NCBI GenBank assembly: GCA_964367235.1
Contig: CAYIXI010000005.1
Coordinates: forward strand, 507 to 60,328
Reading direction: 5' to 3'
DNA: 59,822 nucleotides
Source: an uncultured Chitinophagaceae bacterium
GTDB taxonomy: Bacteria; Bacteroidota; Ignavibacteria; UBA10030; UBA8401
Positions within the stretch are counted from its first letter, which is position 1. Each line of letters starts with the position of its first letter. The translations under genes and the position numbers were made by a program. The notes beneath the pieces are model-generated. The model ran no database searches and was not told the origin of the DNA. It saw nothing but the letters and a program-made list of their open reading frames with translations. This document shows positions 39,336-58,415 of this stretch, in pieces.

Positions 39336-39365
39336 GTCATTCCCGCAGTATTTTAGCGGGAATCT
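39336..39365. repeat. REP-like palindrome GTCATTCCCGC-N9-GCGGGAATC
   Basis: ATTCCCGC/GCGGGAAT perfect stem. Confidence 0.65.
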
Positions 39366-39387
39366 AATTTGTACCTACCAAGAATTA

Positions 39388-39420
39388 CAATTATCAATTA
39401 TCAGTTAGCAATTAACAATT
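39388..39420 (+). repeat. Heptamer tandem repeat (CARTTAN)
   Basis: caattat caattat cagttag caattaa caatt; related tracts near 39841-39867, 54916-54937, 57371-57410 and 57455-57480. Confidence 0.75.
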
Positions 39421-39445
39421 GTCCCGAAGGGATGCCTTTGGCATT
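39419..39445. repeat. 27-bp double-hairpin element, copy 1
   Basis: TTGTCCCGAAGGGATGCCTTTGGCATT; one mismatch to each of the copies at 55244 and 57409. Confidence 0.85.
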
Positions 39446-39460
39446 AATTTTTCATTGTTA

Positions 39461-39713
39461 AATCCCGTAGGGATTAAATATTGGTAGATATATTAAACAC
39501 AACAAATCAGAATCCCGTAGGGATTCAACAATTTATTTCTTGTTAGATTTATTGTTGAACTCCTAAAGGAGTTCGATTATTCTTTTCAATTTTTTTCTAC
39601 CAATATCAGACTCCTATGGAGTCTTTTTATAAAATGATTTTTTTCAGTAGCACCGTAGGTGCGTGCTGATTGTAGATTGATTACAGGGAAAATATTCAAA
39701 CTCCTTTAGGAGT
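39461..39713. repeat. Cluster of six short palindromes forming a nested REP-doublet (REPIN-like) structure
   Basis: AATCCCGTAGGGATT x2, GAACTCCTAAAGGAGTTC, AGACTCCTATGGAGTCT, GCACCGTAGGTGC, ACTCCTTTAGGAGT; tails ATATTGGTAGA/TCTACCAATAT and TTCAACAAT/ATTGTTGAA are inverted pairs. Confidence 0.75.
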
Positions 39714-39789: not shown

Positions 39790-39816
39790 GTCATGCTTCG
39801 ACAGGTTCAGCATGAC
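39790..39816. repeat. REP-like palindrome GTCATGCTTCGACAGGTTCAGCATGAC
   Basis: GTCATGCT/AGCATGAC stem; family shared with 35094 and 55159. Confidence 0.75.
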
Positions 39817-39867
39817 ACTTCCACTTAATGACGCGTTGGGATTGTTTATTGTTAACTGTTAATTGTA

Positions 39868-41790
39868 CTAACTATCTCTTCGGCTTCTAAAACCTTTACT
39901 TGGTGGTCGGCTTGTTTTGCTTTTCGTTTTATTTGGAAATTGCCATCTTGGTTTTTCGCCAGTCGCAAATGGTTTTGAATCTCTTTCGGGTTTTCTATCG
40001 CCAGAAAAAGATTTTCTCCTATCTGTTCTCGGAAAACTATCATTACTTTTCTCAGATGATTTAAATTGTCTATCTGAAAATTTTCTTTCGCCAAATGGTT
40101 TTCTTTCTCTATCTGAATCTATTGGTTTTCGTCTTTCATCTCTTCCAAATCTACTTGGCGGTCTATCGCCTGAAAAAGATTTTCTCCTATCTGATCTCGG
40201 AAAATTATCATTGCTTCTTTCAGATGATTTAAACGGTTTATCTGAAAATTTTCTTTCGCCAAATGGTTTTCTTTCTCTATCTGAACCTATTGGTTTGCGT
40301 CTTTCATCTCTACCAAATCTACTTGGTGGTCTATCGCCAGAAAAAGTTTTTCTGCGGTCAGATCTCGGAAAATTATCATTTGGTTTTTCAAAATTATTAA
40401 ATGATTTCTCTGAAATATTTTTATCCTCGAATGGTTTTTTCTGATTATCAAATTCTACAATTGGTGTGCGTCTTTCATCTCTACCAAATCTTTCCCGTTT
40501 TCTATCGCCAGAAAAAGATTTTCTATCTCTATCTCCAAATCTTTTTCCTCCATCTCTTCCTCGTCCTCTATCTCGACCTCTATCTCCTCCTCTACTATTT
40601 CCACCTCTACCAAAACCGCGGTCATCGCTGATATGTTCTAATTTAGGAAGCGTACTTCTTTCTGGCAATTCTGGCAGTGGAGAAACATTTATTCGAGTTC
40701 GAATTAATTTTTCAATAATTCTAATATCATGTTTCTGTTCGGGTGTTGCAAACGAAATTGCTTTTCCAGTTTTACCTGCACGGCCAGTTCGACCAATTCG
40801 GTGAACATAATCTTCAGTTTGCTCTGGCAAATCGTAATTAATTACAAGTTCAATATTCGATACATCGATTCCGCGTGAAGCAATATCAGTAGCAACAAGA
40901 ATTCTAATTTTACCAGATTTGAATCCACCAAGCGCGGCTCTTCGTTGTCCTAAAGATTTATCCGAATGAATATCCGAAGCTGAGTGATCCATTTTATTAA
41001 TTGCATCGGAAATTTTTTTCGCACCTCGTTTTGTTCGTGTGAAAATTAAAATCATTCCTTTGTACTCATCGAGCAATTTTGCAAGCAACCGAAGTTTATC
41101 TTCTTTATGAATTATAAAAATTTCTTGTTCAACACTTTCATTTGCAGTTCCGGCTGGTGCAACTTCGATGTGCAAAGGTTTCTTCATATATTTTTCTGCG
41201 ATTTGCGAAATCTTTGATGGCATCGTTGCGCAGAATAACATCGTTTGTCTTTCCTTTGGAACTTTATCAAGTATTATTTTTATTTGTTGCTCGAATCCCA
41301 TATCCAACATTCTATCTGCTTCATCTAAAACTAAAACTTTTACATTTGCGAGTGATAAATTTCTTTGTTCAAGATGATCTATTAATCTTCCGGGAGTTGC
41401 TACAATTATATTTGGTTTTGATCGAAGTGATTTTAATTGCGGAAACATCGGCGCGCCACCAATTAAAACTGCTGTACGCATTCCGTAGACTGAACCAATT
41501 TTGTGAATTGTTTCTTCAACTTGAATTGCAAGTTCCCGAGTTGGTAAAAGTACAAGCCCCATATCTTTTTTATCCGATAATTTTTGAATCATCGGAATTG
41601 AAAATGCGAGAGTTTTGCCAGTGCCTGTTTGCGCTATTCCAATTAAATCTTCTCCGTTTGTACCAACTGGGATTGATTTAAACTGAATTGGTGTCGGATG
41701 AACAAATTGTAAATGTTTTAATCGGCTTAAGATTTCTGTTGAAATGCCAAGTCCATCAAATGTGGATTGATTGCTATAATTTTCTGTCAT
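39868..41790 (-). CDS. DEAD-box RNA helicase with long repetitive basic C-terminal tail
   Basis: Q motif PTPIQ, AQTGTGKT, PTRELA, TPGR, DEAD, HRIGRTGR; motif III reads CAT. Confidence 0.95.
   Translation of the reverse strand: MTENYSNQSTFDGLGISTEILSRLKHLQFVHPTPIQFKSIPVGTNGEDLIGIAQTGTGKTLAFSIPMIQKLSDKKDMGLVLLPTRELAIQVEETIHKIGSVYGMRTAVLIGGAPMFPQLKSLRSKPNIIVATPGRLIDHLEQRNLSLANVKVLVLDEADRMLDMGFEQQIKIILDKVPKERQTMLFCATMPSKISQIAEKYMKKPLHIEVAPAGTANESVEQEIFIIHKEDKLRLLAKLLDEYKGMILIFTRTKRGAKKISDAINKMDHSASDIHSDKSLGQRRAALGGFKSGKIRILVATDIASRGIDVSNIELVINYDLPEQTEDYVHRIGRTGRAGKTGKAISFATPEQKHDIRIIEKLIRTRINVSPLPELPERSTLPKLEHISDDRGFGRGGNSRGGDRGRDRGRGRDGGKRFGDRDRKSFSGDRKRERFGRDERRTPIVEFDNQKKPFEDKNISEKSFNNFEKPNDNFPRSDRRKTFSGDRPPSRFGRDERRKPIGSDRERKPFGERKFSDKPFKSSERSNDNFPRSDRRKSFSGDRPPSRFGRDERRKPIDSDRERKPFGERKFSDRQFKSSEKSNDSFPRTDRRKSFSGDRKPERDSKPFATGEKPRWQFPNKTKSKTSRPPSKGFRSRRDS
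39965..40520 (-). repeat. 168-bp (56-aa) intragenic tandem repeat, about 3 copies
   Basis: CTATCGCCWGAAAAAG at 39995, 40163, 40331 and 40502 (spacing 168, 168, 171). Confidence 0.9.
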
Positions 41791-55210: not shown

Positions 55211-56713
55211 TCATTTCATCAAAATCATCTTTTTAATTTCTGTTTGTCCCAAAGGGATGCCTTTGGCATTGTTGCTTGCAAGTTTGTCCGAATGGATCGC
55301 TATGCGATAATAATAAATTCCACTTGTTAGCCCGCCAGTTTTTTGGTGGGGTAAGTTTGAAGCATTAAAATTTATCTGTTGCGGTTCGTTTGCATTTACA
55401 ATTCTATCAGCAAGTGTTGCAATTTCTTTTCCTAAAACATCGTACACTTTTAAAGTTACTTCCCCACTTTTTGCTAATTGATAATTGATTATTGTTTCAT
55501 TGTTAAAAGGATTTGGATAATTTTGATAAAGTTTAAAATCCATTTGCGATTTGGATTTACTTTTAACATTTGTAGTTTTATATGGGAAAATATTTTCTAA
55601 AATTAAATCTATATTCGCTCGCCACAATCCCCAACTATGTCCTTCGGGGAGTTCACGAGAAATAAAATTATATCCTTTTGTGTTTAAGATGTCTCTAAAA
55701 TTTCTCATATTTTGAAAAAGAGATTCATAAGAACCCCAAACCGAAACAATTTTAATATTTTTCTTTTCTGCGCTGATAAATAAATTGTATGCTTCGTAAT
55801 TATTTGATTGAAAAGCGCCAGAGTGAATTCCAAGATTTCCAAAAATGTTTGAATAATTATAACTAATCAAAGCGGAAATATTTCCTCCGTACGATGCACC
55901 CAAAACAAGTCGCTTACTATTTTGATTAATTGTGCGGTAATTATTTTCGATAAAAGGAACCAACTCATCAACAAAAAATTTTATGTATTGATTTCTTTTT
56001 CCGCCAGCATATTCATCATTTCGATTATTTGGTTTAACAAAAACTGCAATCACTTCTTCAATTTTCAAACTGTCAATTAAATTATCTAAAACTAAATTTG
56101 CAGAAGCGAGCGAAACATATTCCGAGCCATCTTGAAAATAAACAGTTGGATATTTTCTTGTATTGTTTTGACTGTAACTCGGTGGCAAATAAATTTGCAA
56201 TTGATGAGTTGCGGCTAAATTTATACTTGCAATAGTTTTATTTTCAATTGTACCGTGCGCGATATTTGGTCGGTTGATAATTTCCCATGGCTGAATATAA
56301 TTTAGCATTGAAAGTTCGCTGTTCGGTCCAAATCCGCCGTAGCAATAATTTGGATTAAGAGGATCTAAAATCCAATTACTTCCGTTTAAAATAAATTTGT
56401 AATCCAATCTCGCATTGGCTTCAAAATTTTTTGATAAATAAAATAAATTTGTGCCACTTAAATTTGTAAGATTTAACATTGCACTCCATCCATTAAAATC
56501 ACCAGCAACAGAAACTGAATTTGCGCTACCACGATAAATAAAAATTGCAAAATTATTTTCAATCAAAGGAAACTTGTTGGCAACAATAAAGCTATCAATA
56601 GTTGAAGATTTTATGCTTAAATCGTTAATCAGATTAACTCTTAAAATAAAATTATTGAAATTTGTTTGAGAATAAATTTGAATGGCGAAAAAGATAATCA
56701 ATAATTTTTTCAT
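55211..56713 (-). CDS. Secreted alpha/beta-hydrolase esterase with N-terminal CBM48/E-set-like domain and T9SS type A sorting domain
   Basis: SVAGDFNGW, YKFILNG.WILDP.NP, GASYG nucleophile elbow, EGHSW, YQNYPNPFN...VYDVLGKEI...SGIYYY...KKMILMK. Confidence 0.9.
   Translation of the reverse strand: MKKLLIIFFAIQIYSQTNFNNFILRVNLINDLSIKSSTIDSFIVANKFPLIENNFAIFIYRGSANSVSVAGDFNGWSAMLNLTNLSGTNLFYLSKNFEANARLDYKFILNGSNWILDPLNPNYCYGGFGPNSELSMLNYIQPWEIINRPNIAHGTIENKTIASINLAATHQLQIYLPPSYSQNNTRKYPTVYFQDGSEYVSLASANLVLDNLIDSLKIEEVIAVFVKPNNRNDEYAGGKRNQYIKFFVDELVPFIENNYRTINQNSKRLVLGASYGGNISALISYNYSNIFGNLGIHSGAFQSNNYEAYNLFISAEKKNIKIVSVWGSYESLFQNMRNFRDILNTKGYNFISRELPEGHSWGLWRANIDLILENIFPYKTTNVKSKSKSQMDFKLYQNYPNPFNNETIINYQLAKSGEVTLKVYDVLGKEIATLADRIVNANEPQQINFNASNLPHQKTGGLTSGIYYYRIAIHSDKLASNNAKGIPLGQTEIKKMILMK
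55244..55270. repeat. 27-bp double-hairpin element, copy 2 (in-frame within CDS)
   Basis: TTGTCCCAAAGGGATGCCTTTGGCATT encodes NAKGIPLGQ on the minus strand. Confidence 0.85.
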
Positions 56714-56842: not shown

Positions 56843-57403
56843 ATGAAAAATTTATCAATCATAATTTTAACAATATTTTTTTCAAATCTTATGAATGCAC
56901 AAAATAATTTCTACTCAATTAAAGTAAAAGACATTGACGGAAAAGAATTTACTTTAGATGAGTATCGAGGTAAAACAATTTTAATTGTAAATGTTGCCAG
57001 CAAATGTGGATACACTCCGCAATACGAAGGATTAGAAAAACTTTACGAAAAATATAAATCTAAAGATTTTGTCGTTTTAGGTTTTCCATCAAATGATTTT
57101 TTGTGGCAAGAGCCCGCGGAGGAAAGAGCAATTAAAGAATTCTGCACTTTAAATTACGGAGTAACTTTCCCAATGTTTTCTAAAATTGAAGTTTTGGGTA
57201 AAGGTCAACATCCACTTTATAATTTTTTGACGCAAGAAAAAACAAATCCAAAATTTCACGGACGGATAACCTGGAATTTTAATAAATTTTTAATCGACAA
57301 AAATGGAAAAATTGTAAATCGATTTGATTCAAAAATTGAACCGCTCTCAAAAGAAATTGTCGAAGCTGTACAATTAACAATTTATCCGCCTAAGGCGGAT
57401 TAA
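56843..57403 (+). CDS. Glutathione peroxidase family protein (Cys type)
   Basis: NVASKCGYT (TGT codon), LGFPSNDF..QEP, WNFNKFLI. Confidence 0.93.
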   Translation: MKNLSIIILTIFFSNLMNAQNNFYSIKVKDIDGKEFTLDEYRGKTILIVNVASKCGYTPQYEGLEKLYEKYKSKDFVVLGFPSNDFLWQEPAEERAIKEFCTLNYGVTFPMFSKIEVLGKGQHPLYNFLTQEKTNPKFHGRITWNFNKFLIDKNGKIVNRFDSKIEPLSKEIVEAVQLTIYPPKAD

Positions 57404-57408
57404 CAGTT

Positions 57409-57435
57409 AATGCCAAAGGCATCTCTTCGGGACAA
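57409..57435. repeat. 27-bp double-hairpin element, copy 3 (inverted)
   Basis: AATGCCAAAGGCATCTCTTCGGGACAA. Confidence 0.85.
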
Positions 57436-57479
57436 TAAAAAATATTTTCAATAACTGTTAATTGATAACTGATAATTGT

Positions 57480-58415
57480 TCAATGTTCAAGCCATCGTTC
57501 CGCATCAATTGCCGCCATGCAACCTGTACCAGCGGCAGATATTGCTTGTCTATAATATGAATCGGCAACATCGCCAGCGGCAAAAACACCCGATATAATA
57601 GTACGAGTTGAACCAGGCTCAATTTTTAAATATCCTTTTTCATCAAGTGGCAAAATATTTTTAAATAATTTTGTGTTTGGCTCATGACCAATCGCAAGAA
57701 ATAATCCATCGGCTTTTACTTCGGTTATTTCATTTGTCGAAATATTTTTTAAATTCAAGCCCGTCATTTTCTTTTTATTGTTTGAAGTTTCTCCAAGCAC
57801 TTCATCAACAACTGAATTATACACTACTTCAACTTTCGGATTTTTTAATAATCTTTCAATCATAATTTTTGATGCGCGAAATTCATCGCGACGATGAACT
57901 AAAATAACTTTCGATGCAAACTTAGTTAAAAAATTTGCCTCTTCCATCGCAGAGTCTCCTCCTCCAACGACATAAACGATTTGATTTTTGAAAAAGAAAC
58001 CATCGCAAGTTGCACAAGCCGAAACACCATAACCCATATATTCCGTTTCGCTCTGAATATTTAAAAGTTTTGCTTTTGCGCCAGTTGAAATTATTACACT
58101 ATCGGCAGTAAACATTTCTTCATCGACAAATATTTTAAAAGGTCGATTTGAGAAATCAACTTTCGTTACAGTTTTGTAAATTGATTTCGCTCCAAATCGG
58201 TGCGCTTGATTTCGAAAAATATCCATCAATTCTGGTCCCATAATTCCATTTACAAATCCGGGATAATTTTCAACTTCGGTTGTGATTGTAAGTTGTCCGC
58301 CGGGTTGCTCGCCTTCAAAAATTATTGGCGAAAGATTTGCGCGACTTGCATAAATTGCCGCAGTAAATCCTGCAGGACCTGAACCGATTATTAAAACTTT
58401 ACTGTGATTAGACAT
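57480..58415 (-). CDS. trxB: Thioredoxin-disulfide reductase
   Basis: GSGPAG, GGQL, CATCDG, GGGDSA, AAGD. Confidence 0.97.
   Translation of the reverse strand: MSNHSKVLIIGSGPAGFTAAIYASRANLSPIIFEGEQPGGQLTITTEVENYPGFVNGIMGPELMDIFRNQAHRFGAKSIYKTVTKVDFSNRPFKIFVDEEMFTADSVIISTGAKAKLLNIQSETEYMGYGVSACATCDGFFFKNQIVYVVGGGDSAMEEANFLTKFASKVILVHRRDEFRASKIMIERLLKNPKVEVVYNSVVDEVLGETSNNKKKMTGLNLKNISTNEITEVKADGLFLAIGHEPNTKLFKNILPLDEKGYLKIEPGSTRTIISGVFAAGDVADSYYRQAISAAGTGCMAAIDAERWLEH

Follow-up and report, generated by a model that had tools for sequence, protein, structure and literature searches.

The mode of movement of repeats of about 20 nt has been an open question since the small dispersed repeats (SDRs) were described in 2008. 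Rickettsia palindromic elements are selfish palindromic DNA of ~100-150 bp, carried in frame in coding genes. Elements of the IS200/IS605 family have a defined target of 4-5 nt, and in IS608 a subterminal spacer separates the hairpin from the cleavage site. SDRs are located in arrays of tandem heptamers and are nested in other repeats. SDR1-8, small dispersed repeats of Nostocaceae, were reportedly described by Elhai et al. in 2008 (Genome Res 18:1484). SDR5 is 21 nt long and, according to the passages cited, splits the HIP1 octamer precisely after its third base, before the fourth, its mover being given there as unknown (PMC4390886, PMC5861425, PMC13756078).

REP stem-loops carry a conserved GTAG or CGTC tag at one end, as stated in the cited section of PMC3733652. 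The TnpA transposase of IS200/IS605 uses a single-stranded mechanism and recognizes subterminal hairpins (PMC6006769, in the part cited). The same paper lists a subclass 1.2 of TnpA-Y1 proteins with the motifs DH[IV]H, WQ and Y---Q--HH, a length of ~148 aa, a low copy number and diverged paralogues. In that description these proteins have no IS200-type ends and no assigned role, and occur mostly in Cyanobacteria and Bacteroidetes (PMC6006769).

Here we describe a 22-nt element which is delimited to the base, has a fold supported by covariation and is present in hundreds of public genomes. It was found in the window, i.e., the whole stretch of 59,822 nucleotides that was analysed, which belongs to a genome (label G000) of 1.99 Mb with 32.8% G+C in 69 contigs. 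Its 18-mer and 22-mer strings occurred in no paper searched, and literature searches on small repeats, RAYT and Bacteroidetes yielded nothing that describes an element of this kind from Bacteroidota or Ignavibacteria.

Copies of the Element in the Window

The sequence-only reading had described three near-identical copies of a double-hairpin element, in coding and also in non-coding DNA. The 22-nt cores of all three were confirmed at the following positions, listed with the neighbouring features.

39422..39443, plus strand: copy 1, exact genome consensus, intergenic between two minus-strand genes, 38.2 bits with the covariance model
55247..55268, plus strand: copy 2, within the T9SS C-terminal sorting domain of the esterase ORF 55211-56713 (minus strand)
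57411..57432, minus strand: copy 3, one stem mismatch, intergenic, 33.8 bits with the covariance model
39388..39421, plus strand: tandem heptamer array of CAATTAT-type units, abutting copy 1 on the left
39444..39460, plus strand: heptamer-like spacer on the right side of copy 1
39461..39475, no strand assigned: small hairpin module with 6-bp stem and GTA loop, second copy at 39511-39525
39830..39872, plus strand: heptamer array without the element, adjoining the stop of the DEAD-box helicase ORF
55286..55310, plus strand: a further small module with a double hairpin, in the sorting domain that holds copy 2, encoding ...YRIAIHSD...
57384..57400, no strand assigned: small hairpin module with 7-bp stem, forming the final codons of the glutathione-peroxidase ORF
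57433..57480, plus strand: A+T-rich stretch with heptamer units, flanking copy 3

Compared with the 24-mer of copy 1, a single loop base (G/A) is changed in copy 2 and a single stem base in copy 3. In 100 dinucleotide shuffles of the window no match to the element was found at up to 3 mismatches. All three cores are flanked by TTG on one side and TT on the other, which corresponds to the AA and CAA noted before on the opposite strand.

As had been claimed, the element occurs in coding DNA (copy 2) as well as between genes (copies 1 and 3). Translated in frame, copy 2 is part of ...NNAKGIPLGQ..., and the Por_Secre_tail Pfam match in this ORF stops just short of it. Copy 3 begins 7 nt past the glutathione-peroxidase stop codon, and a convergent thioredoxin-reductase-like ORF has its 3' end 47 nt away from it. 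In the glutathione-peroxidase ORF the final codons, together with the stop (57384-57403), fall within heptamer units and the 7-bp-stem hairpin module, and the repeat cluster seems to have replaced the original end of this gene. On other contigs the loop of this type of hairpin module carries yet another repeat family.

The surroundings of copy 1 form a composite repeat (~39360-39640), possibly a MITE or a small RNA, with five copies in the genome, in the order heptamers, 22-mer, heptamers, GTA-loop hairpin, conserved stretch of 32 nt and another hairpin. No relevant Rfam match was obtained for it around copy 1. The GTA-loop hairpin module recurs 3' of a Y1 gene on contig C10. The array at 39830..39872 is an unfilled counterpart of element-holding arrays on other contigs. 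Repeats that form hairpins with 8-bp stems (GTCAYNNT...ANNRTGAC) are located at 39790-39816 and on several other contigs, each followed by a conserved GCGTTGGGATTG-like word and then by heptamers; in other genomes the loops of similar repeats hold the 22-mer (L111, L073, L081, L069, L132). The nearby DEAD-box helicase (ORF 39868-41790, minus strand) has a long Arg/Gly/Asp/Ser-rich tail with internal repeats ...RSDRRKSFSGDRPPSRFGRDERRKPI... (window positions 39868-40700).

Fold of the Element

The element strand contains two adjacent mini-hairpins with 4-bp stems and 3-nt loops, the first loop being purine-rich and the second pyrimidine-rich. Since the second half of the element is nearly an inverted copy of the first, energy minimization prefers a different structure, with a single 7-bp hairpin and a GATG loop as the optimum of the plus strand.

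Covariation was analysed on 46 distinct sequences, retrieved by similarity only with at most 5 mismatches and the better strand per site. With the double-hairpin model 93.8% of the cells were paired vs. 79.8% in shuffles, and 37 both-sided changes were counted in seven of the eight pairs; none out of 500 shuffles matched the observed values. When the model was slid along the alignment as a control, the paired cells dropped to 22-53%. The covariation thus supports two adjacent 4-bp-stem hairpins, as originally drawn, and not one long hairpin, and it shows selection on the double-hairpin fold. The single 7-bp hairpin was rejected as the conserved fold, as it showed neither covariation nor an excess over shuffles. 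The C-GAA-G triloop is an unusually stable DNA mini-hairpin, and a stable triloop would fit a single-stranded DNA form of the element.

An intrinsic terminator was rejected because the hairpins are not followed by a T-run. At the gathering score, Rfam reported two tRNAs only in the whole window, and around copy 1 only chance-level matches were obtained at E<=5.

Copy Number and Distribution

The genome-wide count that had been set as a test yielded 25-26 sites and thereby far more than three copies. The 2.0-Mb genome contains nine exact 24-mers and 25 matches with up to 4 mismatches, and 26 distinct sites were detected with the covariance model at E<0.01. Of the words in the genome that contain G+C, the 16-mers and 20-mers of the element belong to the most frequent. 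When the genome was scanned strictly for pairs of neighbouring G+C-rich hairpins (4-bp stems, 3-nt loops), 17 hits were obtained, all of them the element, and the same scan returned none in each of five shuffled genomes.

Relatives were searched with a form of the 22-mer in which the two loop bases that vary are given as R and Y, allowing up to one mismatch. Of 41 related genomes 23 contained it, and the copy numbers ranged from 0 to 58 (G001 58, G000 20, G017 17, G014 13). In an even sample of the phylum the exact 22-mer was found in 29 of 301 genomes, and the reversed pattern, used as control, gave no hit in any of the 41 relatives or the 301 phylum genomes. Chance or low complexity as the origin of the element is rejected by the window shuffles, the shuffled genomes and the reversed controls. 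At the family level the 301 genomes are patchy, with 13/49, 5/17 and 4/14 genomes positive in some families but 0/63, 0/22 and 0/16 in others.

A scan with one genome per species gave at least 116 loci. Among the matches listed, 112 carry FCB-group names, one belongs to Patescibacteria and three are named 'uncultured bacterium'; the FCB names comprise Ignavibacteria, Bacteroidota families, Calditrichota, Balneolales, Chlorobiota and Marinimicrobia MAGs. The distribution in the FCB group is wide but patchy. Viral contigs (IMG/VR) contain just two element matches, and phage-borne spread is therefore not supported. In one relative (G014:C3:962305-968708) a one-mismatch variant of the 22-mer repeats about every 197 nt in a tandem array; either a longer tandem repeat or a repetitive gene may contain it.

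Precise Presence and Absence of 22 nt

Filled and empty sites were compared in three unrelated contexts. The first is a MITE-like repeat of ~145 nt in the relative G001, which gave 48 BLAST matches. Out of 30 loci 22 were aligned, omitting eight that were partial or cut by a contig end. In this alignment six copies are filled, 14 are empty, one carries an interrupted element and one a different insert. The element sits in the apical loop of an 8-bp hairpin, where the empty copies have a bare 5-nt loop. Filled loops are longer than empty ones by precisely the 22 nt, with zero duplicated bases, and the filled state is present in two subfamilies of the repeat. In the interrupted copy (L185) two 22-mers that are built in the same way, though on different, mutually complementary stems, lie inside the element. 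The element occurs nested within other repeats and also within itself.

The second context is a row of four tRNA-Asp-derived units in a Rikenellaceae MAG (L123), two of which are filled and two empty. Again, the difference is exactly 22 nt, here in the D-arm region, without duplication. ARAGORN detected no intact tRNA in this locus or in five others; the tRNA-like units with the element are fragments.

The third context are the T9SS sorting domains of the source genome. In a DNA alignment of five paralogues the element is present in two, namely the gene with copy 2 and one located where contig C3 begins, and these two exceed the other three by 21 nt at the element. As the surplus is exactly 21 nt, the insert is kept in frame. 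All five domains have the '...YRIAIHSD...' stretch in common. The module encoding it (55286..55310) is identical over 25 nt in five paralogous genes (window and contigs C1, C3, C27, C64) despite diverged flanks and lengthens the domain by seven residues relative to ordinary sorting domains of this genome; it resembles a further mini-insert kept in frame.

The relatives collected included no genome of the same genus, and every empty site is a paralogous one. Hence, the empty sites predicted by the sequence-only reading exist, in three contexts, but as paralogous rather than orthologous sites. The unit is exactly 22 nt long and is inserted or precisely removed without target duplication. This supports the proposal of an ultra-short mobile sequence, as the same 22 nt with identical ends are present or absent in all three contexts, and the element is probably a mobile 22-nt unit.

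The stretch around copy 1 is present in 20 of the 24 sequencing runs listed, which come from eight studies in all. Logan contigs from three DNA runs and one RNA run end at the repeats, and these contigs contain no 22-nt indel; in two runs a single contig of 18.5 kb extends across copy 3. Short-read assemblies break at every copy of the element.

Insertion Contexts and Orientation

In the source genome the element lies between TTG and TT, usually within heptamer arrays, which are interspersed with other small hairpin modules and adjoin longer hairpin repeats. The identity at lag 7 in its flanks is 0.38, compared to 0.26-0.32 at other lags and 0.277 in random windows, and a clear lag-7 signal is limited to the flanks in this genome. 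In other genomes the flanks are mutually unrelated. By eye, several of these copies are placed between tandem 7- or 8-mer units whose sequence varies by genome, and several are in the loop of longer hairpins. Perfect closing stems of at least 6 bp surround eight of 119 copies in other genomes (0.9 expected, maximum of 4 in 200 permutations).

Across 121 copies, the common flank signal consists of T-rich positions at -3 and -2 and A-rich positions at +2 and +3, and nothing else. On the left side T reaches 60% at -3 and 79% at -2, and position -1 is C in 46%, G in 24% and T in 20%, so that only a TT[C/G/T] bias and no strict target word was found ahead of the element. The AA and CAA around the core had been considered either a target preference or part of the element. 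They are constant in this genome but not elsewhere and are therefore a local target or context and not part of the moving unit. Sites that are probably single-stranded or structured, namely hairpin loops, heptamer junctions, small repeats and occasionally in-frame coding DNA, are over-represented among the insertion sites.

The copies are partly found in larger repeats. Four of the nine exact copies in the source genome are at a fixed place in a larger repeat, and most of the 30 contexts read in G001 fall within two MITE-like families. As many copies in these two genomes ride in larger repeats, the copy number is partly passive.

Gene orientation was scored for 22 copies against naive ORFs of at least 120 aa. 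Relative to the gene with the nearest 3' end, 17 copies are on the opposite strand, two are on the same strand and three could not be determined. Outside long ORFs or at their very ends lie 20 of the 22 copies, and eight are 7-16 nt past an ORF end. The orientation relative to local GC skew is only weakly biased (11 vs. 7, in this 69-contig genome). A bias in gene direction that is stronger than that in GC skew fits an effect at the transcript level at least as well as an effect of the replication strand.

These data bear on another explanation, in which the 22-mer would be a structural motif selected by the host, for example a transcript-protecting RNA double hairpin in 3'-UTRs or a site bound by a conserved protein of the FCB group, kept identical and spread by recombination between repeats. 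With the 17 copies described, the complement of the element is on the sense strand of the gene with the nearest 3' end; the eight copies shortly behind ORF ends and the predominance of gene orientation over GC skew point in the same direction. On the other hand, the insertions in a coding domain, in tRNA-derived repeats and in the element itself would not be expected of such a motif, and the exact presence or absence of 22 nt in three unrelated contexts offers no flanking homology for recombination. The stems covary as is expected of a functional fold, but no Rfam family matches them and, lacking a T-run, they form no intrinsic terminator. Similarly, the near-identity across phyla, which holds even at 1-3 copies per genome, has to be set against the patchy spread with no positive genome in three large families (0/63, 0/22, 0/16). 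An RNA-library contig covers the region of copy 2, which is not proof of transcription. Altogether, we consider a host-selected motif unlikely.

Candidate Enzymes

The sequence-only reading had suggested an HUH/RAYT-type helper acting in trans and had seen no mobilizing gene in the window. We infer such a helper as well. Five intact ORFs of 144-172 aa match Pfam Y1_Tnp in the genome, and none of them is in the window. They are mutually 30-65% identical and each is single-copy. The motifs DHxH, WQ and YIxNQxxHH are present in all six Y1 proteins considered, i.e., these five and the one of the genome G285, the middle residue of HUH being V, I, C or T. Judged by sequence and compared with Table 1 and section 18 of PMC6006769, all six carry the signature of subclass 1.2. 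Two of them, one from this genome and that of G285, were scanned against NCBIfam. They scored 79.5 and 95.1 bits with NF033573 (IS200/IS605; cut-off 55) and 33.4 and 22.4 bits with NF047646 (REP_Tyr_transpos), below the cut-off of 80.

Within 500 nt of the Y1 genes of this genome no element was found (0/5). Each of the five genes is flanked by small hairpins, and upstream of the gene at C1:104773 there are hairpin repeats with 13 nt in common with the left half of the element. Runs of N are located at C1:104285 and C1:154769 beside two of the Y1 genes, in hairpin-rich repeat clusters, and some repeats flanking Y1 genes may therefore be hidden. In G285 a gene of the subclass-1.2 type lies between two direct-repeat modules of ~110 nt which each contain the element and account for two of the three exact copies of that genome. 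Among the ~45 element-bearing genomes inspected, this adjacency was observed in G285 only.

The co-occurrence with Y1 proteins that had been proposed as a check depends on how these are counted. Subclass-1.2-like genes, defined as matches to a profile of the six proteins at E<=1e-30, are present in 22 of 29 genomes with the element vs. 114 of 272 without (odds ratio 4.4, Fisher p=6e-4, with kin being non-independent). For any Y1 match the difference is not significant (25/29 vs. 195/272, p=0.12). No subclass-1.2-like match was obtained in seven of the 29 element-bearing genomes and no Y1 match of any kind in four. The subclass-1.2 association is mostly one between families; within f32 it is not significant (10/13 vs. 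22/36). Among the 41 relatives, the element is present in 22 of 33 genomes with a Y1 gene and in one of eight without. That an enzyme of subclass 1.2 moves the element is thus a tentative assignment, which we hold to be possible but somewhat less than an even bet.

As a side observation, contig C61 (4779-7195), outside the window, contains 33 repeats that recur at a period of ~75 nt in a CRISPR-like array.

The genome also has one ORF with an RT domain (505 aa), and 22 nt could instead be carried from repeat to repeat by templated copying, either by a reverse transcriptase or by template switching or gene conversion at replicating hairpins. The lack of target duplication would be in line with this, as would the frequent location in loops of hairpins and in tandem arrays, where slippage and strand switching easily occur. 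However, filled sites have no homologous flanks by which a switch could be guided, and the ends are identical to the base in every context. No RT was found near any copy examined, and neither poly-A nor any other mark of retro-insertion was seen. Moreover, two strict covarying 4-bp stems point to recognition of the fold. For these reasons templated copying appears improbable. The last explanation, that the 22-mer is an immobile passenger multiplied solely with larger repeats (MITEs, composite intergenic repeats), is very unlikely, since despite the many copies inside the two MITE-like families of G001 and the four of nine exact copies at the same place in a larger repeat of the source genome, the same loop of one MITE family is filled in six and empty in 14 copies, two MITE subfamilies include filled members, and copies in other genomes have unrelated flanks.

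Discussion

We propose that the element is a discrete non-autonomous 22-nt DNA module that is moved as single-stranded DNA by a Y1 HUH transposase in trans, a reading to which we give an even chance of being correct. According to this proposal, the element would consist of hardly anything beyond two recognition hairpins on one strand. A Y1 HUH enzyme acting in trans would recognize the hairpins and cut and paste the single-stranded 22 nt, the likeliest enzyme being one of the five low-copy IS200-like 'subclass 1.2' proteins. This Y1 step is inferred, and it is the most economical reading. Since the bias in gene direction, the identity across phyla and the lack of a strict target word fit the IS608 model poorly, a role at the RNA level or in protein binding as well as templated copying keep some probability. 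REP-type repeats normally diverge together with their enzyme, and the near-identity of a 22-mer between phyla is unusual among them.

By analogy, the 22-mer and the cyanobacterial small dispersed repeats could both be natural substrates of orphan Y1 HUH proteins of subclass 1.2, a generalization that we regard as doubtful at present. Subclass 1.2 is reported from the two phyla that have ~22-nt repeats of such sort, and this is the most interesting lead. As a concrete class of candidate enzymes exists, the proposal can be tested with oligonucleotides and a purified protein of 150 aa.

The element is one of the smallest mobile DNA elements seen. It reshapes genes, as seven residues are added to secretion-signal domains and repeat clusters seem to overwrite the ends of ORFs. 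If the proposed mechanism is true, it would be a minimal single-stranded-DNA transposon made solely of two recognition hairpins, able to enter hairpin loops, tandem arrays and in-frame coding sequence and common to FCB phyla. If the link to the enzyme is true, a cut-and-paste substrate of 22 nt would be the smallest known transposable unit.

Comparison With Known Systems

In contrast to MITEs, which have terminal inverted repeats, target-site duplications and a size of 50-500 bp, the element has 22 nt and causes no duplication; in G001 it is itself a guest within MITEs. As with the Rickettsia palindromic elements, a palindromic repeat is tolerated in frame, here in two T9SS sorting domains, but the insert comprises only seven codons.

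With IS200/IS605 elements it shares insertion without target duplication and the presence of hairpins at both ends, and TnpA-IS200 has its nearest relatives in the candidate enzymes. In difference to this family, the 121 copies reveal no defined target tetranucleotide, and unlike in IS608, a length of 22 nt leaves no room for a subterminal spacing between hairpin and cleavage site. No full-length IS with the ends of the element was found, and subclass 1.2 itself is described, in the part of the source cited, as being without IS properties (PMC6006769).

Like REP and REPIN sequences, the element is a short G+C-rich imperfect palindrome with many copies, mostly extragenic and at the 3' ends of genes. 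Its frequent occurrence in mosaic clusters with other motifs resembles BIMEs, and low-copy, diverged Y1 genes flanked by small hairpins resemble the REP/RAYT system, both as described in the passages cited (PMC3116915, PMC2817692). It has two inverted halves like a REPIN, although it is far shorter and its halves are not separated by a spacer. Unlike REPs, it is conserved across phyla, and neither GTAG nor CGTC is present in the 22-mer or in the flank consensus of the 121 copies. The flanking of the cognate gene by the repeat, typical of REPs, is seen at none of the five Y1 genes of the source genome, whereas in G285 it is present on both sides. In contrast to RAYTs, the two of six Y1 proteins that were scanned score as IS200/IS605 family and below the REP_Tyr_transpos cut-off.

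SDR1-8 of Nostocaceae are likewise very small dispersed repeats (~21-27 nt) which, in the sections cited above, are argued to be mobile. Repeats of the SDR type are reported there from Nostocaceae only, whereas the 22-mer occurs in several phyla, the two being compared by their description only. The element belongs to the FCB group, with no cyanobacterial record among the matches listed (at least 116 loci). Of the kinds of repeats described so far, the cyanobacterial small dispersed repeats and REP/REPIN are the closest to the 22-nt element.
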